From assembly GCA_963666835.2 (NCBI GenBank), contig CAXXGO010000006.1:1888001-1952000 (forward strand): a DNA stretch of 64,000 nt, given 5' to 3'. The stretch is from Phycisphaerae bacterium. GTDB taxonomy: Bacteria; Planctomycetota; Phycisphaerae; UBA1845. The notes under the pieces are model-generated. The model was not told where the DNA came from. It saw only the letters and a program-made list of their open reading frames with translations, and did not search any database. Below, in pieces: positions 30,681-42,658 of this stretch; the stretch's first letter is position 1, and each line of letters starts with the position of its first letter. The position numbers were made by a program, and so were the translations under genes.

Positions 30681-32846
<2,166 letters not shown>

Positions 32847-34606
32847 TCAGCGAGGAGCCGTCCATGGCCAATGGTGGGAACGAACACGATTATGATCCAT
32901 TCGACAGCCTGGACTCTGAAGAAGATGCGTTCGGTCAAGGCGGACCTCGCGAAGACTACGAGTTTGCACACGAAAGCCCACCGCAACAGCAGTCCTCACC
33001 CGACGAGCCCGGCTATTGTGTGGTGCAGGAGCCCACGGCGGAGAGTATGGAGCCCGTAGCCGACGCCGCGCCGGCAGCTCACTCGGCTGAAGATGAACAG
33101 CTTCTATGTGAAATCGAGAAAAGTCAGAACAAATCCCGCGGGGTGATTGCGCTGGTTCTGACGCTGCTGATTTCCGGGGCCGTGTTCGTCGTTGTGGGGA
33201 AGGCCTGGTGGTCTTGGGAGTTGGTGCTGATGTTCTTGGCGATTCTGCTGATTCACGAGTTCGGCCATTTCGTCACCATGAAGGGTCTGAAGTATCGCAA
33301 CGTGAACATGTTCTTCATCCCGCTCCTCGGAGCAGCCGTGACCGGACGTCATTACAACACTCCTGCGTGGAAGAAGGCAATGGTTGCGTTGATGGGGCCG
33401 CTCCCCAGCATCTTCCTGGCGACCGGGGTCGGAATCGCGGCGGTCGTGGCGGATATGGATTGGCTGGTATATGCATGCGTTCTGTCTTTGTTTCTCAACG
33501 GACTCAATCTTGCGCCGTTTCTTCCGTTTGACGGCGGGCACGTTTTGCACGCGGTGCTGTTCTGCAGGCACTACTACCTTGACGTGGCGTTTCGCGTCAT
33601 CACGGTCTTGATCGTACTTGCTTTCGCGGTGTTGCTCGAGGGGTCGCCGTTTCTGGTCGGCCTAGCGGTGTTTCTGGGGATGACAATCCTCATTACTCTG
33701 CGCAACGGGCGGATTGCGCGTGAGTTGAAATCTGAAGGGAGCCTCGAGTTGGCCGGCGAGGACGATCGCGTGACACCCGCGACTGCACTACGCGTCGCGC
33801 ACGCTTTGCGGGCAGGGACTAACCCCAAGATGAGCGCCAAGGCCCTAGCGCAATCTGTGCTGCAAGTAGTTGAGCAGATTAACGCTCATCCGCCTGGCGT
33901 CTTGGCCTCGATCGGCTTGCTGTTCCTTCACGGTGCCGGGCTGGGCGTTGCTTTGTTCGCGGGGTTCTTCCTGAGCATTGCCGTAAACGAAGACCTGCGG
34001 GAGAGATTCTGGGTGGCGGCCGAACCGCCGCCGCTATACGCGTATGATTGTGATGCGGTCGAGACGCGGGGTGAGCGGTACGTGCCAACCTTCGGCACCA
34101 ACTACATCATTGCGACGTTTGCCACGCCGGCTGACGCAAACACGGCTTATAAATCGGCCAAGCCGGACATCTCCGCGCAAGACCATCTCCAGAGGTTCGG
34201 TCGGACGGTGAGCATTGCGTTGAGCAGCGAATCCACGCCGGAGATGCGGAAGTCCTGGATAGACCGATGGGAGTTGGAAGCGCAGGAACTTATCGTCGAC
34301 TTACCATACAGTCCGGTGTTATTCTCGCTAGACGCGACGTTCTCTGACGCTGCATTCGCCCGTCGGGTTGACAATGAGGTTCAGGCATATCTTAAGAATG
34401 AGTTTCAGAGTGCATTAAGCCCTCCTTGGCAGCCCGATGCTCCGGTACGCGATCCTGCCGAAGGCGAAAGATACGAGGCGCGGCGGACCTGTATCGAACT
34501 ATCAAAGGCCGTTGATAAGGCGTGTCCTTGCGGTGAGCGTGTATGACGCGATTTGAGCGACCCGGTATCGTCAGCCGTCGACCGATGGTGGTCTGGAGGA
34601 CGGCTG

Positions 34607-35047
34607 ATGAGATCCAGAGGGACAGGCACGCTCCCGGCTCGCCTCGAGGCGGGTCGGCGGCGTTTTGAACGTTGGCGTCGGACCCGTGAAGGCCGCTCGC
34701 GCATTCCGGATCCGCTGTGGAGTTTGGCGGTGAAGCTCTCCGCAACGTACGGGATTCACCGAACCGCCAAGACGCTGCGACTCAATCCCGACTCGCTCAA
34801 GAAACGGGTGGCATCTGCAAACGGCGATGGCTCGCTTGGGCAGAGGAAACCCCGACAGAAGACCGCCGGGCAGGAGGCAGCCACGGCTTTCGTTGAGTTG
34901 GTGTCTACTGAAGGCACTTGCCCGCCCGAGTGCATCGTCGAACTGGAGAATCCTCGCGGGGCGAAGATGCGGATCCACGCCAAAGGCAACCAAATCCCGG
35001 ACGTGGTGACGGCGGTGAGCCAGATCTTCTTCGGCGCCATGCCATGA
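34607..35047 (+). CDS. tnpA: IS66 accessory protein TnpA-like
   Basis: GGAGGA SD; RIPDPLWSLAVKL...TAKTLRL HTH, AFVEL...VELENPRGAKMRI. Confidence 0.8.
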   Translation: MRSRGTGTLPARLEAGRRRFERWRRTREGRSRIPDPLWSLAVKLSATYGIHRTAKTLRLNPDSLKKRVASANGDGSLGQRKPRQKTAGQEAATAFVELVSTEGTCPPECIVELENPRGAKMRIHAKGNQIPDVVTAVSQIFFGAMP

Positions 35048-35406
35048 TTCAGGTCACACCCCAGATGCGCATCCTGGTGGCCGTCGAGCCCGCCGATTTT
35101 CGAAAAGGCATAGATGGCCTGGCCCGGCTGTGCAAGGAGGAGTTGAAACGCGACCCGTTTTGCGGCTGGGTGTTCGTATTCCGCAATCGACGGGCCACGG
35201 CTGTGAAGGTTTTGGCTTATGATGGGCAAGGATTCTGGTTAAGCCATAAACGTTTGTCGAGCGGGCGGTTTCGCTGGTGGCCCGTCAGTAAGACAGGGGC
35301 GAGCAAGACGCTGGAGGCGCACCAGCTGCACGTCCTCCTGTCGGCGGGCAATCCCGACGCGGCGCAGGCACCGGCGGCATGGCGGCGAGTCAACGCAGCA
35401 TCTTGA
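35044..35406 (+). CDS. tnpB: IS66 accessory protein TnpB (Orf2-like)
   Basis: ADFRKGIDGL...FVFRNRR...KVLAYDGQGFWLSHKRLSSGRF.WP; ATGA overlap with tnpA. Confidence 0.92.
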   Translation: MIQVTPQMRILVAVEPADFRKGIDGLARLCKEELKRDPFCGWVFVFRNRRATAVKVLAYDGQGFWLSHKRLSSGRFRWWPVSKTGASKTLEAHQLHVLLSAGNPDAAQAPAAWRRVNAAS

Positions 35407-35435
35407 GAGCGAATGAAAAAACTCGGCCTTCGGGC

Positions 35436-35464
35436 TTGCGTTCTACTTTTGATCCTGCTACGCT
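35436..35464 (+). promoter_or_regulatory. Internal IS promoter candidate
   Basis: TTGCGT-17 nt-TACGCT, 6 nt before ATG 35471, no SD. Confidence 0.55.
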
Positions 35465-35470
35465 GCGGTC

Positions 35471-36343
35471 ATGGACGTGCTGCGGTACCGAGGCCGGGTT
35501 GTCACCGACGCCGACGTCGCCTTCATTGGTGACCTCATCAGCGCGCATCCAACCGCCACGCGGCGGGCACTGTCCCTGAAGCTGTGCGAGGCCTGGAACT
35601 GGGTCCAGCCCAACGGCGTTCTGCGGGACATGGTCTGTCGCGGATTGTTGCTGGCGTTGCATCGCGCGGGCCACATCGAGCTGCCGCCGGCGCGGAAGTC
35701 CAATCCTCTGGGGCCGCAGCGTCGGACACCTTCGCGCGCGACGCTCCGCTGTGATCCCATCGAGGGGCGACTGTCCGACATCCTTCCGCTTACCATCGCT
35801 CAGGTGCGACGCACCGGTGATGAATCGCTGTTCGACAGTCTGCTTCAGACCCACCACTATCTGGGCTACACCCAGCCGGTCGGCGAACATTTGAAGTATC
35901 TGATCTCGACAAATGGTGTTCCGGTGGCCTGCCTGGCGTGGTCCTCGGCGCCGCGGCACCTGGGTCCAAGAGACCGCTTCATCGGTTGGTCGGCCGACAG
36001 CCGGCGGAAGAACATCCGCTTCATCGCTTACAACCTCCGCTTTCTGATCCTGCCGTGGGTCGAGGTCCCTCATCTGGCCTCGCACATTTTGGGTCGCATG
36101 GCCCGGGTGTTACCTCAGGACTGGGAGCGGATCTACGGCCACCCCATCTACTTCCTGGAGACCTTCGTTGATCCCCAGAGATTCAAAGGCACCTGTTACC
36201 GCGCGGCCAACTGGTTGGTTCTGGGGCGCACCACGGGCCGGGGCAAGGACGACCTGACCCACCGGCCTAACCGGTCCATCAAAGAGGTGCTGGGCTACCC
36301 ACTCTCGAAGCATTTTCGAAAACGATTGTGCCACACCGCATGA
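35471..36343 (+). CDS. DUF4338 protein (Druantia DruA-like domain; Mom/GNAT-like fold inferred)
   Basis: HHYLG...GEHLKY, RDRFIGW, NLRFLILPWV..PHLASHIL, ETFVD..RFKGTCYRAANW...GRTTGRG. Confidence 0.85.
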   Translation: MDVLRYRGRVVTDADVAFIGDLISAHPTATRRALSLKLCEAWNWVQPNGVLRDMVCRGLLLALHRAGHIELPPARKSNPLGPQRRTPSRATLRCDPIEGRLSDILPLTIAQVRRTGDESLFDSLLQTHHYLGYTQPVGEHLKYLISTNGVPVACLAWSSAPRHLGPRDRFIGWSADSRRKNIRFIAYNLRFLILPWVEVPHLASHILGRMARVLPQDWERIYGHPIYFLETFVDPQRFKGTCYRAANWLVLGRTTGRGKDDLTHRPNRSIKEVLGYPLSKHFRKRLCHTA

Positions 36344-38058
36344 AGAAGACCATACCCATTGAGAAGATCGCTATGAAAGAACTGGAATCCATTCTGCAAC
36401 GCGCTGAGACGGCTCCGCTGGATGCAAAGGACCGCGCGAAGCTCAAGGCGGTGTTCGAATCCTACCTTCACCTGACGGACCTACTCGAGGACAAGCAGAT
36501 GACAATCAAGCGTCTACGGCAGATGCTCTTCGGCGCCGGCACCGAGAAGACCCGCGATGTGATCAAGGAGGAGGAAGACGAACCCGAGTCGCCGCCGGCG
36601 ACGGGCGGGGATTCGCGTGCCCCGCCGGAGAAGACGGGCGAAGAGGGCTCGGAACCGCAGCAGAAACGCAAAGGACATGGGCGCAACGGCGCCGACGCCT
36701 ACACCGGCGCTGAGAAGATCAGGGTGCCTCACGAATCCCTCCAGCCGGGGGATTCGTGCCCGGCGTGCAAGAAGGGCACAGTCTACCAGATGAAGAAACC
36801 CGGTGTGCTGATCCGGATTGTGGGTCAGGCTCCGGTGGCGGCCACGGTCTTCGAGCTTCAGAAGCTGCGCTGCCATCTGTGTGGCAAGGTATTCACGGCC
36901 GAGCCGCCCGAGGGAGCGGACGAGGAGAAGTACGACGCGACGGCAGCGAGTATGATCGCCCTGCTGAAGTACGGAAGTGGGTTACCCTTCAATCGATTGG
37001 AAGGCCTGCAGGGAAACCTGGGCATTCCTCTGCCGGCCTCGACCCAGTGGGACATCGTCCGCGACACCGCCGAGATCATCCAGCCGGCCTATGATGAGCT
37101 GATCCGGCAGGCTGCCCAGGGGGAGGTGCTGTACAATGACGATACCACGATGAAGATTCTGGAACTGATGGGGAAGCGGGCTACCGCCAGAGCCTGTGCC
37201 GAAGCTGAAGGCGAGGACGAGGGCGATGGCGCACCCGAGCGTGCGAAGAACGTACCCAAGCGCTCGGGGGTGTTCACCTCGGGCATCGTGTCCACCCGCG
37301 AAGGGCGCACGATCGCGCTGTTCTTCACGGGGCGGCGGCACGCTGGGGAAAACTTGGACGAGGTCCTGGCCCACAGAGCCTCGGAGCTGGGTGTGCCGAT
37401 CCAAATGTGCGACGCCCTGTCGCGTAATGCGCCCAAGGAATTCGAGACCATCCTGAGCAACTGCCTGTCCCACGGCCGGCGCCAGTTCGTCGATGTGGTG
37501 GAGAACTTCCCGGACGAGTGTCGCCACGTGCTTTTGACCCTGAGGGACGTCTACAAGCATGATGCCATCGCGCAGAAGCAGGACCTGACGTCCGAAGAGC
37601 GCCTCCGCTTCCACCAAGCTGAGAGTGGCCCGCTGATGGACGACCTCAAGGAATGGCTAACCAGGCAACTCAAGGACCACCTGGTGGAGCCGAACTCCGG
37701 TCTCGGCGAGGCTATTACCTATATGCTCAAGCACTGGGACAAGCTGACGCTCTTCTTGCGTAAGGCTGGGGCTCCGCTGGACAATAATGTTTGCGAACGA
37801 ATTCTGAAGCGGGCGATTCTTCACCGTAAGAATGCGATGTTCTTCATGAGCGAAAACGGTGCCCGCGTGGGCGATCTATTCATGAGTCTGATCCACTCCT
37901 GCCAGCTTTGCGGCGCCAATCCCTTCGATTACTTGACCGAGCTACAGAAGCACGCGGCGGAACTCACCTCCGATCCCGCGACGTGGATGCCCTGGAATTA
38001 CCGGGACGAATGGAAGAGGCGAAACGTGGACACGGAAACGGCAGTGGGATATGTCTAA
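36340..38058 (+). CDS. tnpC: IS66 DDE transposase TnpC
   Basis: LFG..TEK, CPAC...CHLC Zn ribbon, LPFNR, NDDT, MCDA, CLSHGRRQF, AITY...W..L, LDNNVCER. Confidence 0.93.
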   Translation: MKKTIPIEKIAMKELESILQRAETAPLDAKDRAKLKAVFESYLHLTDLLEDKQMTIKRLRQMLFGAGTEKTRDVIKEEEDEPESPPATGGDSRAPPEKTGEEGSEPQQKRKGHGRNGADAYTGAEKIRVPHESLQPGDSCPACKKGTVYQMKKPGVLIRIVGQAPVAATVFELQKLRCHLCGKVFTAEPPEGADEEKYDATAASMIALLKYGSGLPFNRLEGLQGNLGIPLPASTQWDIVRDTAEIIQPAYDELIRQAAQGEVLYNDDTTMKILELMGKRATARACAEAEGEDEGDGAPERAKNVPKRSGVFTSGIVSTREGRTIALFFTGRRHAGENLDEVLAHRASELGVPIQMCDALSRNAPKEFETILSNCLSHGRRQFVDVVENFPDECRHVLLTLRDVYKHDAIAQKQDLTSEERLRFHQAESGPLMDDLKEWLTRQLKDHLVEPNSGLGEAITYMLKHWDKLTLFLRKAGAPLDNNVCERILKRAILHRKNAMFFMSENGARVGDLFMSLIHSCQLCGANPFDYLTELQKHAAELTSDPATWMPWNYRDEWKRRNVDTETAVGYV

Positions 38059-38641
38059 ACGCAGCTCGAAGAAAGCGGTCAAACCTCCCAAGATAGCGGA
38101 CCCCGGGCAACGGCTGCGCAAGGCGCTGGCCAGGCGCACGAAAGGTGAGCTGATTGATGTTCTCGTGGAATTGGCCAGTGATGATCGCGCAGTTCTCCGG
38201 CGGTTTGCGGCACGCTTCGAACTACAGGCTCCGCCCAAAGAACTCTTGGTGATGACCCGTCAAGCGATTGCCGACGCTACCGCCTTCGACGAGCGGGACG
38301 CCAATTACAACTTCAGCTACGACGACGAAGCATACCGTGAAGTGCAACAGAATCTGAACCGCTTGATCGAGCTGGGGCATCTACGGCCGGCCATGGAGTT
38401 GTCGCTGGAGCTGATGGATCAGGGAAGCTACCAGGTCGAATCGAGCGATGAGGGATTGATGACCGAGGACATCGAGGCGTGTTTCGGTACGGTCCTGAAA
38501 GCCCTCCGAAAGTGCGACCTGCCGGCAGCCGAGGTGATCGCGTGGTGCGCGAAGATGCTCAAGACTGACCGCGTGGGCTTCATCTGCGATCAGGAGCTTC
38601 ACACGCTGCGACGGCGATTCGAGGGCACGCCGTCGCCATGA
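38051..38641 (+). CDS. Hypothetical helical protein, IS passenger
   Basis: 196 aa, overlaps the tnpC stop, ends inside the element before the right TIR. Confidence 0.7.
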   Translation: MSKRSSKKAVKPPKIADPGQRLRKALARRTKGELIDVLVELASDDRAVLRRFAARFELQAPPKELLVMTRQAIADATAFDERDANYNFSYDDEAYREVQQNLNRLIELGHLRPAMELSLELMDQGSYQVESSDEGLMTEDIEACFGTVLKALRKCDLPAAEVIAWCAKMLKTDRVGFICDQELHTLRRRFEGTPSP

Positions 38642-39417
38642 CCCGCCGCCAATTCCCCAGGTGGATGTCGAGTCCTGAAAGCCGACCGGACCTCACATCG
38701 TGATGCCCGCCAAGCAACGGCCCGCGTCTTCCCCCCCACAACGAACCGCGCGCCGCAAATCGGATCATACACGCTCACCGGAAAGACACGATAAGGCGAT
38801 CGACGACGATAAACGGGCGGCCTCGGCCGTACGTATTGCTGACTACGATAAGCTGCAGGAAATCAGAGACGAGATCACGCGCAGCACGGTTGCCGATCTC
38901 AAGATCTCCAATCCGGATATCGATGTTGTTACAGCAGACCTCTACGTGCGATGGACAACCGGTGAGTATGACAAGGAGGCTTATCGGTTACTGTTGGAGC
39001 GGATGGGAGGAGTGTTCATCGACTATGAGGAGTACGAGGATCCACAAGAGGGCGATAGCGACGATGACAACGATTCCGGATCTGCGAAAACGGCTGATGA
39101 TTCGCCCGGTGATTCGGATATCGACGCGGATAACGCCGACGGCGAAGCGCCCGAGGCCGACGAGTTCGACGAAGAGGATTACGATTATGCGTTGACCGCG
39201 GGCTTTGAACGATATGGGGCCAGGGGTTCGAGTTTCAGGAATAGAAAGACGGTGTCGTTTCGCGCGGTTTCATTGAACGTCGATGCGGAGGGTGCACGGG
39301 CGATTACGGACTGGCTATGTTCGCTGGGCGCGCAAGAGATAACTTATGCCTTCTATGTAGATGATTGGGAGTAGTGCTGCGTTAGTGACACTCCGAGAGC
39401 TTTTCGGTTCTTTAACC

Positions 39418-39654
39418 GGCAGGTCTCGTTCCTCGACCATGCCCTACCTGCTGTGCGGCATGGGCTCCTGGCCCTCCGAGGTCAGCCCGTAACGTGGTGA
39501 TGAGTTGCGTCGCATCAGTATCGTGACCGTCATGGAGCAACTTCGTTGCGTGAATGCGTCGCTGCGTGTCGGCCGGGGGCGGGTCGCTCACGCTCACCGT
39601 ACTGGTCGCGCGGGTTCCTGAATTGGCAGGTCTCGTTGCTCGACCATGCCCTAC
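39418..39654 (-). repeat. Two REP-like family A copies
   Basis: GGCAGGTCTCGTT(C/G)CTCGACCATGCCCTAC at 39418-39447 and 39625-39654. Confidence 0.88.
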
Positions 39655-39790
39655 CTGCTCAGAAGCTTCTTCGAGGGCTGTCGGGACGCACAACTGCGCA
39701 GATCGGATTGACTACGTTCGTTGCCGGCCGATAGAATGCACCAATTGGGTTACAGCGAAGATCACTGTCACCTGCCCAACGGAGTGACGT

Positions 39791-42658
39791 GTGGATGCCT
39801 GTCCGAAAATCGGCGAGGTCGAGGCGTTTGTCGCCGGGGAAGTGTCGGCAGAGGACAAGGCGCGCTTCGAGGCCCATCTTGCTTCCTGCTCGCGTTGCCG
39901 TAGTCTCACCAGCGCTATTGAGCAAGATCAAGCGTTAGCCCAGGGCATTCAACAGGCGTACGAGGGGATCGCGGTTTCCACCATGAACACGTCGGCCGAA
40001 CTCGGGTCCGACGAGCGATCCAGCGTCGCCGACTCTATAGAAGGCTACGAGATTCTGCACGAGATCCACCGCGGCGGGCAGGGCGTGGTGTACAAGGCCG
40101 TGCAACTGGCCACGAAACGTACGGTTGCTCTGAAGGTCCTCCTGCAAGGGCCCTACGCCTCCCCGAAACAGCAGCATCGCTTCGAGCGCGAGATTGACCT
40201 TGTCGCCAGCCTCCAGCACCCCAACATTGTTACCGTCTACGACAGCGGTCTGACGCACGGGCACCATTACTTTGCCATGGAGTATATCCACGGGCAGTCG
40301 TTGGACGTTTATCTATCGAACAACAAGCTGAGCATCGATCGGATGCTGCGGCTGTTCCGCAAGATCTGCTCGGCGGTAAACGCCGCGCACCAACGCGGCG
40401 TGATCCACCGTGACCTCAAGCCGGGGAACATCCGCGTTGACGCCGAGGGTGAACCGCACGTCCTCGACTTCGGTCTGGCGAAAGCGGCGGGTTCGAACCT
40501 GCAGGGAGGCGCGCCCGTAACGATGTCCGGTGAGTTTATGGGCACGCTGGCTTATGCGTCGCCGGAGCAGACCAGGGGCGATCCCAACCTGGTCGACATC
40601 CGCACTGATGTATATTCGCTGGGCGTGATCCTCTTCGAAATGCTCACGGGCAAGTTCCCGTACCAGGTCGTCGGCCACTTCGCCGACGTACTCAACAACA
40701 TTGCCGAGGTCGAGCCGGAGAGGCCGTCCACAATCTGCCGCCAGATCAATAACGAGGTCGAGACCATCGTTCTCAAGGCCCTGGCCAAGGAGAAAGAACG
40801 TCGTTATCAGTCGGCCGAGGCTTTGGCTCACGATGTCGGCCGGTACCTGGCCGGCGAAGCGATCGAGGCGAAACGCAACTCGGCATTCTACATGCTAAGA
40901 AAGTCACTACGGCGCTACCGGTTCGTAGCGGGCGTCGCCTTCGCTTTCGTGCTGGTGCTGGCCGTGTCCACGATCGCGCTGTCGATCATGTACCGGAATC
41001 AGAGCGTGGCGCGCGAGGAGGCCGATCGGTCCCGCAGTCTGGCCCATCGGCGCTACGAGGAGATCATCCGCCTGGCGGACCTTAAGCGCCTGGACGATGC
41101 GATAGCTACGGCGCAAGAGCTGTGGCCAGCGTATCCCGACAAGATTCCGGCGATGGAAACGTGGCTCGAGACCCGGGCTGTTCCGTTGCGGGATAACCTG
41201 CCCAAACACGTGGCGACCCTCGAAGCCCTTCGCGATCAGGCCCTGGAGTACGACGCTGTGCAGGAAAGGCGCGATAGACAGACGCATCCGAAAGCTGCAG
41301 AGCTTGCCCGGCAGAAGCGGCGTCTGTTCGAACTTCAGAAAGAACGTGAGGACCTTGCGGCCATAGAAGGTGAAGTTACAGAAGAGGAAGCGAGGAGGAT
41401 CGAGAGAGTCGGCATACACCTGGCCGAGGCAGAGCAGAGTGTCGCGACGCTGACAGAGGAGGTCGAACAGCGCCGCACCTGGCTTCTTCCTGACGAAGGA
41501 GCCCAATGGCAGCACGATCTGCTCGCTGAGCTGGTGGACGGTCTCAGGCGTTTTGTGAGCGATGACCCCGCGGTAGGCACCCTCCGCAATGTGGAAGATC
41601 GGCTGGACTTCGCCAGAGGCGTTACGGATCGGAGTATCACCGGGGCTGAAGCGGCCGCGGCGTGGGACCGAGCCATCACCGACATCGCCCGGCTGGAGGT
41701 CTACCACGGATTGCGGCTTACGCCTCAACTGGGTCTGATCCCGCTACGTCGCGATCCGAGGTCGGGGCTTTGGGAGTTCCTGCACATCCAAACCGGAACG
41801 AGGCCGGAGCCGAATCCCGAGGAGGATGCCGCAAATCCCTGGATTCTGACCGCGGATACCGGGTTGATTTTCGTACTCATTCCCGGCGGGAATTACTGGA
41901 TGGGGGCTCAGAATGAGGATCCCGCGCGGCGCCACTACGACCCTCTGGCGGACCCCGATGAGACCCCGGTCCACGAGGTTGCGCTCGATCCGTTCTTCAT
42001 CTCCAAGTACGAAATGACGCAGAGCCAGTGGGAGCGGTTCACGGGGTATAATCCCAGTTCCCTGGGGCCGGACTGGAATTCAATGGGCAAACCGTCGGGC
42101 GGGGTCATACTTCACCAGAACGAGCCCTGGAGCCCGGTAGAGATGGTCAGTTGGACGGACTGCCGCGACGTTCTTGGGCAACTCGGCCTGGTGTTTCCGA
42201 CGGAAGCGCAGTGGGAGTGCGCCGCCCGAGGGGGCACTGACTCCGCCTGGTGGAGCGGAAACGAGTTAGAGTCCATTAATACCCAGCAAGCGGGCAACCT
42301 TGCGGATAGTCTGACGAAAAGCAGAGGCGGGCCGACTTCATGGCCTTACGAAGAAGCTCTGGAAGACCCCTGCCTCGTTCACTGCCCCGTGGGCAGATTC
42401 CGTCCCAACGGTTACGGGTTGCACGACACGATCGGCAACGTGAAGGAGTGGTGCCGCGACGCTTACCAGTCCTATGAGAAAGACGGGCGGCCCGGGGACG
42501 GCCTTCGCGAACTCGGAGACAACCCCTCCCGCGTGAACCGGGGCGGCAGCTACACCTACAACGCCCGAGTCGCCCGATCCGCCAACCGCAACTGCGCACC
42601 ATCGGGATACGTCAACGACTCCGTCGGCGTGCGCCCGGCCAGGATCATCACTGATTGA
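39791..42658 (+). CDS. Ser/Thr protein kinase with N-terminal zf-HC2, TM segment and C-terminal FGE-sulfatase domain
   Basis: HLASCSRC; GGQGVVY, VALK, HRDLKPGN, DFGLA, YASPE, DVYSLG; FPTEAQWE, NGYGLHD, RVNRGGS. Confidence 0.92.
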   Translation: MDACPKIGEVEAFVAGEVSAEDKARFEAHLASCSRCRSLTSAIEQDQALAQGIQQAYEGIAVSTMNTSAELGSDERSSVADSIEGYEILHEIHRGGQGVVYKAVQLATKRTVALKVLLQGPYASPKQQHRFEREIDLVASLQHPNIVTVYDSGLTHGHHYFAMEYIHGQSLDVYLSNNKLSIDRMLRLFRKICSAVNAAHQRGVIHRDLKPGNIRVDAEGEPHVLDFGLAKAAGSNLQGGAPVTMSGEFMGTLAYASPEQTRGDPNLVDIRTDVYSLGVILFEMLTGKFPYQVVGHFADVLNNIAEVEPERPSTICRQINNEVETIVLKALAKEKERRYQSAEALAHDVGRYLAGEAIEAKRNSAFYMLRKSLRRYRFVAGVAFAFVLVLAVSTIALSIMYRNQSVAREEADRSRSLAHRRYEEIIRLADLKRLDDAIATAQELWPAYPDKIPAMETWLETRAVPLRDNLPKHVATLEALRDQALEYDAVQERRDRQTHPKAAELARQKRRLFELQKEREDLAAIEGEVTEEEARRIERVGIHLAEAEQSVATLTEEVEQRRTWLLPDEGAQWQHDLLAELVDGLRRFVSDDPAVGTLRNVEDRLDFARGVTDRSITGAEAAAAWDRAITDIARLEVYHGLRLTPQLGLIPLRRDPRSGLWEFLHIQTGTRPEPNPEEDAANPWILTADTGLIFVLIPGGNYWMGAQNEDPARRHYDPLADPDETPVHEVALDPFFISKYEMTQSQWERFTGYNPSSLGPDWNSMGKPSGGVILHQNEPWSPVEMVSWTDCRDVLGQLGLVFPTEAQWECAARGGTDSAWWSGNELESINTQQAGNLADSLTKSRGGPTSWPYEEALEDPCLVHCPVGRFRPNGYGLHDTIGNVKEWCRDAYQSYEKDGRPGDGLRELGDNPSRVNRGGSYTYNARVARSANRNCAPSGYVNDSVGVRPARIITD

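Follow-up and report, generated by a model that had tools for sequence, protein, structure and literature searches.

The window analysed here, a 64,000-nt stretch of DNA, contains an IS66 element of 4,268 bp (34522..38789) with five open reading frames, one of which, a DUF4338 gene, lies between tnpB and tnpC. Judging from its sequence features, this gene may be part of an optional control cassette (a promoter, the leaderless DUF4338 gene, and the coupled tnpC) that would gate the transposase of an active, GTGTCC-ended element; we favor this reading with reserve, as possible rather than probable. The likeliest role of DUF4338 is to control the movement of its own element, and not to defend the host against viruses.

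The features of the element are summarized in Table 1. The preliminary description had reported an intact element with terminal inverted repeats (TIRs) matching at 30/34 positions, a perfect 8-bp target-site duplication (TSD), ends of GTGTC rather than GTAA, and the order tnpA-tnpB-DUF4338-tnpC-orf5, and all of this was reproduced; both TIRs begin with GTGTC. When the element and one TSD copy were removed in silico, the 763-codon frame of an M50-peptidase gene was restored. The empty site was found in a contig of run X2, which joins 34513 to 38790; this run and the best holder, X1, stem from separate samples and studies. As to further copies, which the preliminary description had raised, the same genome harbors a second one (G000:C3:387092-391359) that is 99.6% identical and flanked by its own TSD, CTCCAAGG. 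The restored frame, the empty site, and the second copy with another TSD indicate that the boundaries reflect more than chance. The element is real, was recently active, and transposed as one unit. Start and stop codons overlap as ATGA at tnpA/tnpB and at DUF4338/tnpC, the latter confirming the translational coupling that had been proposed, whereas tnpB and DUF4338 are separated by a 64-bp gap containing a conserved promoter-like box. The same genome also contains a canonical GTAAGC-ended IS66 copy with an 8-bp TSD. An Rfam scan of 34000-40000 gave no match, and RNA run X20 yielded only short pieces with many differences, most likely derived from relatives.

Table 1. Features of the IS66 element and its insertion site (window coordinates).
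Feature	Position	Strand	Basis or remark
5' part of interrupted host gene (peptidase M50 domain)	32810..34521	+	PF02163, 1.6e-12
Left TSD, GATAAGGC	34514..34521	.	Identical to 38790-38797; empty site in run X2
Left TIR, GTGTCC end	34522..34555	+	30/34 match to right TIR
tnpA-like accessory gene, 146 aa	34607..35047	+	Position and conserved relatives
tnpB (IS66 Orf2), 120 aa	35044..35406	+	PF05717, NF033819 at 2.9e-29; ATGA-coupled to tnpA
Putative internal promoter, candidate operator	35436..35464	+	TTGCGTTC box, conserved upstream of DUF4338
DUF4338 gene, 290 aa	35471..36343	+	PF14236, 5.8e-29
tnpC, IS66 DDE transposase, 572 aa	36340..38058	+	NF033517, PF03050 at 4.9e-45; ATGA-coupled to DUF4338
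orf5, conserved accessory gene, 196 aa	38051..38641	+	2242 homologues, no Pfam match
Right TIR	38756..38789	-	Pairs with left TIR
Right TSD, GATAAGGC	38790..38797	.	Identical to left copy
3' part of interrupted host gene	38798..39374	+	In frame with 5' part; empty site

TnpC matched NF033517 with 206 bits (cut-off 180), has the invariant residues D267/D268, D358, and E486 and four cysteines, and is only 24% identical to the canonical TnpC. The tnpA-like protein had no match among Pfam or NCBIfam HMMs, and hhalign paired it only weakly (19% probability) with TnpA of the canonical element on contig C1; its position and size fit TnpA. The element shows the features of the IS66 family in the broad sense, namely, a DDE TnpC, TnpB, TIRs, and an 8-bp TSD in both copies, and lacks the GTAA ends and the compact three-gene tnpABC of the canonical IS66/IS679 group. 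Canonical members of that group have a tnpA-tnpB-tnpC operon, and their ends begin with GTAA. The accessory gene orf5 is confined to a Planctomycete-rich sub-branch, occurs also in elements without DUF4338, and has dN/dS of 0.19-0.24; an atlas gave a DUF6880 lead on 26% of one homologue cluster.

A distinct IS66 subgroup encoding DUF4338 had been proposed at the outset, and this stands for the branch and not for the gene. The TnpC trees support the view that GTGTCC ends mark a distinct TnpC clade across many phyla; it spans at least 12 named phyla, archaea included, and two element copies were found on one viral contig. The GTGTCC end type is common to relatives with and without DUF4338; within the clade the gene is optional, not a fixed, defining part. 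In one sample, DUF4338 was present in 42 of 50 informative genomes, and in an even sample it was present in 6 of 21 informative loci and absent from the other 15. One genome has 17 left ends of elements lacking DUF4338 and no DUF4338 at all; since such elements multiply without the gene in the genome, DUF4338 is dispensable for transposition. Its absence from many close TnpC relatives is an outcome that the preliminary description itself had named as telling against its proposal, and it tells in part. The TnpC tree implies a minimum of 5 and a maximum of 11 changes in the state of the gene. Trees were built with one representative per near-identical group and without truncated loci (53, then 72 rows). 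The tree on which state changes were counted leaves out three long-branch outgroups, and the first TnpC tree was made by a quick fallback method. Where it is present, DUF4338 diverges together with TnpC (distance correlation of 0.75 over 26 elements), with dN/dS of 0.11-0.38 (14 pairs), similar to that of TnpC. These values support the view that DUF4338 is a maintained part of the elements carrying it, under purifying selection. One MAG has 8 copies, and in 3 of them DUF4338 is frameshifted, possibly by assembly error. The idea that DUF4338 decides TSD formation was rejected, because elements without it (L051, L057) have TSDs and some copies with it do not.

The DUF4338 protein matched PF14236 with 101.6 bits (cut-off 27) over profile positions 36-225 of 297. 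Its predicted structure (AF2, pLDDT 88) comprises an N-terminal winged-helix-like domain (residues ~1-72) and a Mom-like GNAT domain (~104-288). The best PDB match in Foldseek was Mu Mom (8bv8, E 3.6e-7), and VIA-align likewise ranked Mu Mom first, with Z 14.7 and rmsd 3.4 over 165 aligned residues; the next match had Z 12.5, and many protein- and small-molecule GNATs followed Mom at Z 11-12.5. Comparison of the IS-DUF4338 profile with a Mom-family profile of 10 members gave 96% (E 4.7e-9), whereas single-sequence hhalign to Mom had been weak before the profile was built (1.4%, 0.9%). Six residues invariant in 10/10 Mom-like proteins (H58, Y59, R111, S124, D149, Y159) align to H129, Y130, R190, S204, D234, and Y243, which are conserved in 240, 232, 240, 239, 238 (D or E), and 241 of 241 DUF4338 proteins, respectively. 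Their importance in Mom is described in the available text of PMC13219725 and bioRxiv 861617; the accessible part of the preprint of PMC7261163 reports the Mom arginine as conserved in Mom homologues and not across GNATs. The resemblance to the Mom GNAT fold, suspected initially from the motif ETFVD...GTCYRAANW, which is present, was borne out by the top rank of Mom and the six retained residues. On the predicted model, DUF4338 is a carrier of a Mom-like GNAT fold with a conserved Mom-type active site.

Some parts of Mom are not matched. The essential R151 of Mom has no exact equivalent: Q236 is in register, an adjacent arginine (R237) is present in 231 of 241 proteins, and R151 itself is retained in only 3 of 10 Mom-like phage proteins. 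The HTH-like insertion of Mu Mom (residues ~175-209), which is essential in Mom, is replaced in DUF4338 by a shorter basic loop (residues ~254-270); the length of this insert varies among Mom-like phage proteins as well. DUF4338 scored 13.2 bits with the Pfam Mom model PF25680, below the cut-off of 27.1; its relatives reached 25.5 bits and matched phrog_1384 at 5e-8. A sequence search of the PDB with DUF4338 found nothing, and phage records gave no match at useful significance. For the N-terminal domain, structure matches were mostly winged helices with Z up to 6.0, a range that the tool calls common, and Foldseek with this domain alone found nothing at E 0.001. A complex prediction for DUF4338 and TnpC scored 0.00 and was counted neither way.

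Upstream of DUF4338, the putative promoter consists of the TTGCGTTC box as the -35 region, a 17-nt spacer, and TACGCT as the -10, with the start codon 6 nt further on. The box was found in 32/32 upstream regions of main-clade DUF4338 genes (a count that leaves out the distant-subfamily loci L027, L033, L046, and L064, all lacking the box), against a background of 29/3055 50-mers; the full geometry was seen in 22 of the 32 and a Shine-Dalgarno-like sequence in one. Only 2 of 23 elements without DUF4338 have the box, although related elements are not independent samples. A consensus promoter scan missed this promoter; matches to a loose 'B-type' promoter regex (17/40) included false ones, and this figure was set aside. 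In 30 of 35 loci, DUF4338 and tnpC overlap by ATGA or GTGA, and the two stay together in L028 and L038, where tnpAB is reversed in orientation. Together with tnpC, DUF4338 would form a transcript of its own that it heads and that is apparently leaderless. The box may also be simply a conserved -35 element that is lost along with the deletion. The slot has been refilled: five elements carry a DUF4338 of a distant subfamily, three of them with a different box. In a single case (L014), a homologue of Upf31 (52% identity) replaces DUF4338; none of its 8 metagenome relatives lies beside IS66 genes. According to the available text of PMC11997246, Upf31 represses its own promoter and has kept methylase motifs, with no methylation detected by SMRT. 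The methylase-like gene of L014 was therefore rejected as support for adenine modification, and the methylase motifs of Upf31 without methylation warn that a gene resembling a modifier may work in this position through binding only. By this analogy, L014 would be one case favoring a regulatory slot.

In the proposed cassette, the internal promoter between tnpB and tnpC would drive the leaderless DUF4338 and, through translational coupling, the transposase. The winged-helix-like domain would bind the box conserved in the promoter of the cassette itself, and perhaps the element ends too, and the Mom-like GNAT domain would acylate an adenine close by. Mom carries out a Gly-tRNA-dependent N6-adenine modification of dsDNA, and by this analogy the acyl group may be glycine supplied by charged tRNA. 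Transposase supply would thereby come under local feedback or epigenetic gating; genome-wide modification or host defence would not be the outcome. Host Dam gates IS10 and IS50 comparably. This explanation is weakened by the elements without DUF4338, which are common and in some cases highly multiplied, and by the unmatched HTH-like insertion, the missing exact equivalent of R151, and the Z range of the winged-helix matches, which is a common one. In a bolder version, which we regard as doubtful, DUF4338 would be a portable, winged-helix-guided Mom-type enzyme found in several unrelated DDE families that marks adenines of the element's own promoter or ends with a group derived from an amino acid and taken from charged tRNA; it would then be a self-encoded epigenetic switch for transposition, tied to the translation state of the cell, and would link phage Mom to Druantia DruA in evolution.

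The distribution of the domain bears on whether DUF4338 is a DruA-like anti-phage gene carried as cargo. Pfam names the domain DruA, and the profile of IS-DUF4338 is homologous to that of true DruA (95.7%), so that the earlier identification with the DruA domain holds at the level of PF14236. It does not extend to Druantia DruA itself, which was rejected as the identity of the protein: PADLOC gave no match for the window DUF4338 at E 0.1 and none for any of the five open reading frames; the element has no druB-E genes, the neighbors of DUF4338 being tnpB and tnpC; and the HY, R, and D motifs are missing from true DruA, whose profile matches Mom at only 1%. In the same PADLOC models, 13 of 58 relatives matched, at best with 8.6e-5, whereas true DruA controls reached 1e-113 to 1e-177; one control locus (L085) has DruE and DruB. 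The host-defence role first considered is thus weak, and cargo of this kind is very improbable. In a survey that scanned selected open reading frames, 22 of 29 PF14236 loci other than our own (even sample, 400 genomes) were transposase-fused or -adjacent, 3 were true DruA, and 4 were left unassigned; because the domain is routinely labelled 'Druantia protein DruA', defence counts are inflated. Homologues are abundant (8000/8000 scored candidates). Among the best 120 long homologues, C-terminal fusions joined DUF4338 to another IS66 transposase (74) or to a Tn5-type (25), IS701-type (12), DDE_Tnp_1 (2), or ISAs1-type (1) transposase, and the other 6 were N-terminal IS66 joins. Such repeated fusion to unrelated transposases, together with purifying selection, co-divergence, and translational coupling, makes a neutral passenger hardly credible, despite the many relatives without the gene, its repeated state changes, and the frameshifted copies in one MAG.

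Two further explanations concern what the protein acts on. As a Mom-like anti-restriction function, DUF4338 would broadly modify adenines of the carrier DNA or of transposition intermediates and so aid survival in new hosts. Mom, its closest fold, protects Mu from restriction, and the wide range of the clade, the copies on a viral contig, and the dispensability of the gene within a genome are as expected of an aid to horizontal transfer. However, Mom is toxic and tightly regulated, according to the available part of bioRxiv 861617, whereas a sigma-70-like promoter immediately precedes DUF4338; local action is suggested by the added winged-helix-like domain and by the transposase fusions, and Upf31, a homologue of which fills the slot in L014, showed no modification. 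We consider this explanation unlikely. The protein could also be an autorepressor that works only by binding. Its GNAT domain would then either sense a ligand or act on something other than DNA, be it charged tRNA, the transposase, or a host protein. The link of the promoter box to the gene and the Upf31 precedent in the same slot argue for it, as do the many other GNATs among the structure matches; the authors on Mom state that GNAT substrates vary widely and cannot be predicted from structure. On the other hand, what is conserved is the residue set of the Mom family (HY, R, S, D, Y), including the arginine that is not general to GNATs, and this set is kept in fusions to five transposase types. 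We consider binding alone rather improbable.

Enzymes that act on DNA are rarely found among IS accessory genes. If catalysis is confirmed, DUF4338 would rank as a DNA hypermodification enzyme directed at particular sites and as a new route of self-control for mobile elements. It also yields a concrete hypothesis about the homologous DruA, from which most of the Mom motif residues have been lost. Iyer et al. reportedly described Mom-family domains fused to or beside transposases in 2009 (Cell Cycle) and 2013 (NAR), and are said to have suggested protection or regulation. Among the papers listed by our literature searches, none describes DUF4338, or any Mom-like gene, from an IS66 element; how new the arrangement is may depend on the supplements of PMC13219725, with its homologue network, and of PMC10853773. 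IS66 regulation is called poorly characterised in the available text of PMC12898284.

Compared with known systems, the element shares with canonical IS66 members (IS66, IS679, ISPpa5, ISPpa7) the DDE TnpC, TnpB, a TnpA-sized first open reading frame, and the 8-bp TSD, which the accessible part of PMC3281130 gives for ISPpa5/7. It differs from them in its GTGTCC ends, in the promoter-like box and DUF4338 that part tnpAB from tnpC, and in the extra orf5; ends vary elsewhere in the family too, as in ISDge4 (GTGA/GTAA). With Upf31 of IncP-1beta plasmids, a modifier-like protein repressing its own promoter, the likeness is a functional analogy only, the fold (Dam-like methylase) being unrelated. 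Druantia type I DruA shares PF14236 and a homologous core and is longer (~400 aa against 290). Mu Mom (8bv8), for which the available text of PMC13219725 describes tRNA-dependent adenine hypermodification, shares the GNAT fold and the six invariant residues; DUF4338 is 17% identical to it, has the added winged-helix-like N-terminal domain, and is encoded by an insertion sequence rather than by a phage.

The insertion in the window is recent. All features of the preliminary description were recovered: the terminal repeats start with GTGTC and are identical at 30 of 34 positions, the duplication GATAAGGC flanks the element on the left and right, and five ORFs (tnpA-like, tnpB, DUF4338, tnpC, orf5) lie on the + strand, with ATGA overlaps joining tnpA to tnpB and DUF4338 to tnpC. 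In-silico excision restored a 763-codon frame in a gene with an M50 peptidase domain, and a contig of a different sample and study has the empty site, running from 34513 straight into 38790. The window's genome held two copies and no more; since the second, on contig C3, was 99.6% identical and had a different 8-bp duplication (CTCCAAGG), we conclude that the five-gene unit moves whole. Eight of the 17 differences between the copies were in tnpA (34722-34984); the coding sequences of DUF4338 and orf5 were identical in the two. A 31-bp intergenic repeat nearby, REP-like and dispersed, had 603 genome matches at ≤3 mismatches and very high contig depth.

Coordinates of the element and associated features (window positions unless a contig or locus is named)
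Feature	Position	Strand	Remarks
IS66-family element	34522-38789 (4,268 bp)	+ (five ORFs)	terminal repeats and duplicated flanks
DUF4338 gene (PF14236)	35471-36343	+	290 aa
GRACRC match at element ends	34522-34527, 38784-38789	one strand	GGACAC
GRACRC match in main-clade box	35438-35443	lower	GAACGC
31-bp intergenic repeat	39417-39447, again about 39613-39659
Canonical three-gene IS66	C1, about 883990-886573		GTAAGC ends, duplication ATAACATC, without DUF4338
True DruA, then NurA-domain gene	L083, 1109-2251
Slot with Upf31-like gene	L014, 1013-1866		GTGTCC-ended element

TnpB and TnpC passed the IS66 models, and TnpC kept the invariant D267/D268, D358 and E486; the first ORF was named tnpA by position only. 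By transposase, TnpB and target-site duplication the element belongs to the IS66 family, but it lies outside the canonical GTAA-ended three-gene group, and its TnpC was 24% identical to that of the canonical copy on contig C1. The product of orf5, in which no Pfam domain was found, represents a conserved family (2242 matches) restricted to one sub-branch of the clade.

The DUF4338 protein matched the Pfam model DruA (5.8e-29) and, weakly, Mom (E 0.073). The Mom-like fold proposed earlier was borne out by its AlphaFold model (pLDDT 88): Foldseek returned phage Mu Mom as the top PDB match (E 3.6e-7), and an exhaustive structural aligner also ranked it first (Z 14.7, rmsd 3.4 over 165 residues; next row 12.5). 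Profile-profile alignment of 241 IS-associated DUF4338 domains with a 10-member Mom profile gave 96% probability, pairing Mom H58, Y59, R111, S124, D149 and Y159, invariant in 10/10, with DUF4338 H129, Y130, R190, S204, D234 and Y243, which were conserved in 232 to 241 of the 241 sequences (D or E counted at 234). According to PMC13219725 (and, for the mutations, bioRxiv 861617), Mom takes glycine from charged tRNA and attaches it to N6 of adenine, and mutation of these residues impairs or abolishes its activity. The first ~72 residues of DUF4338 fold into a small domain of their own; winged helices make up most of its best matches, at modest Z up to 6.0. DUF4338 is already termed a GNAT domain by Aravind's group, in another context, in PMC10853773.

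A TnpC-based scan yielded 79 loci from 58 genomes, with DUF4338 just upstream of tnpC in 52, absent in 18 and uninformative in 9 (42, 8 and 8 genomes, respectively). GTGTCC ends were common to elements with and without the gene. The ratio differed when 400 genomes were sampled evenly from the window's phylum: the 25 loci besides our own comprised 6 with DUF4338, 15 without and 4 truncated. Thus the proposed distinct IS66 subgroup stands as a GTGTCC-ended clade, but DUF4338 is optional within it, being absent from those 15 loci. On a 72-row TnpC tree the window element fell in a supported group of seven, all with DUF4338, yet over the whole tree its state changed 11 times, at least five forced by well-supported branches. 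In some members of the clade (L028, L038, L157, L162, L165, L173, L176) tnpC is convergent with tnpB-tnpA, with or without DUF4338. Two copies of a DUF4338-bearing relative (L138, L139) lie at both ends of a single 42.7-kb viral contig.

In genome G001, left ends of a DUF-less element were counted 17 times. DUF4338 was sought there in two ways, the window's genome serving in one of them as the positive control, and was not found, although the MAG is incomplete and the gene could have been missed. The DUF-less element multiplied where no DUF4338 was found, and DUF4338 is therefore not needed for transposition. Matching 8-bp flanks occurred in 0 of 11 complete copies in G001 (L113-L129), and the left flank of one equalled the right flank of another; the copies may have rearranged with one another, the events may have been replicative, or the assembly may be at fault.

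DUF4338 is a recurrent transposase partner. Among 29 PF14236 loci of the even sample other than our own, 22 adjoined a transposase gene or were fused to one, three were DruA and four were unassigned. The best 120 long homologues comprised fusions to a second IS66 group (74, C-terminal), Tn5-type (25), IS701-type (12), DDE_Tnp_1 (2) and ISAs1-type (1) transposases, and six N-terminal IS66 joins that, mostly single-member clusters, may be read-through artefacts. The key residues were kept in the transposase fusions. A literature search, with Iyer et al. 2009 and 2013 outside its scope, found no description of DUF4338 paired with IS66 elements; those papers reportedly mention Mom domains linked to transposases, so the general idea of such a link may already be in print.

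DUF4338 also travels with a promoter-like box. In the window, the 64-bp gap ahead of the gene contains TTGCGTTC, a 17-nt spacer and TACGCT, with the start codon 6 nt on. The box, TT[GA]C[GA]TTC, occurred in 32/32 main-clade upstream regions, always 35-38 nt ahead of the start; 22 had the full promoter-like geometry and one a Shine-Dalgarno-like sequence. It was present in 2 of 23 elements without DUF4338 (within the searched upstream stretch), and in one such element, L158, it stands directly ahead of tnpC, like a deletion scar. DUF4338 and tnpC overlapped in 30/35 loci, and their coupling was intact in L028 and L038, where tnpAB is reversed at the far end. A comparable geometry occurs in other DUF4338 elements, Tn5-type fusions among them; L089, L097, L109, L111 and L141 are clear examples in which the box resembles CTGGACAC. 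In a tree built from 75 DUF4338 domains, one supported group took in 30 of those belonging to this clade; the tnpB-tnpC slot has been refilled, because five other clade members (L027, L033, L046, L064, L149) grouped with a distant subfamily. GRACRC fits the element ends, the main-clade box and the other-subfamily box GGACAC (L147, L089 promoters), and GACAC fits SASNY, the target of Mom; this possible common motif is only a lead, as it was defined with the sequences already in view and the ends are the same in DUF-less elements.

The results show that the element is active, that DUF4338 keeps a Mom-type active site under selection, that the promoter box goes with the gene and that the gene is dispensable. 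We tentatively propose that the N-terminal domain of DUF4338 would target the box and its GNAT domain would mark an adenine nearby, gating the DUF4338-tnpC transcript or the element ends; any modification of DNA adenine by the enzyme is somewhat more likely than not. Repression by binding alone, with a non-DNA substrate for the GNAT domain, seems unlikely. In L014, where tnpA is divergent, the slot is occupied by a Dam-like gene of 223 aa, which shares 52% identity with Upf31 of IncP-1beta plasmids, and a 61-aa ORF, behind a TTGACA promoter-like sequence; according to PMC11997246, Upf31 lowers the activity of its own promoter about 50-fold, with no methylation seen.

Broad anti-restriction, one role suggested in the preliminary description, is equally doubtful, and host defence, another of them, is very improbable. 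Neutral cargo is the least credible reading. Elements that carry DUF4338 maintain it: dN/dS over 14 pairs was 0.11-0.38, versus 0.12-0.29 for TnpC, and DUF4338 and TnpC distances were correlated (rho 0.75 over 26 elements; same nearest neighbour in 19/26).

The suggestion that the gene is Druantia's DruA was ruled out by PADLOC and by motif differences. PADLOC matched none of the five element proteins and 13/58 relatives (best 8.6e-5), versus 1e-113 to 1e-177 for three true DruA proteins, one of which adjoins DruE and DruB. At another true DruA (L083) a NurA-domain gene takes the place of DruB, and at L084 a recognised Druantia neighbour was likewise missing among the ORFs scanned. The extra gene of the window element is Mom-like, as its modelled fold and residues suggest, though it departs from the Mom family in some features, two of which matter: Mu Mom has an essential HTH-like insertion and an essential R151, whereas DUF4338 has a shorter basic loop and just the adjacent R237. 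DruA is homologous to the IS-borne DUF4338 (95.7%), but the HY, R and D motifs are missing from it and its match to Mom was only 1%, so the IS-borne DUF4338 sits between Mom and DruA.
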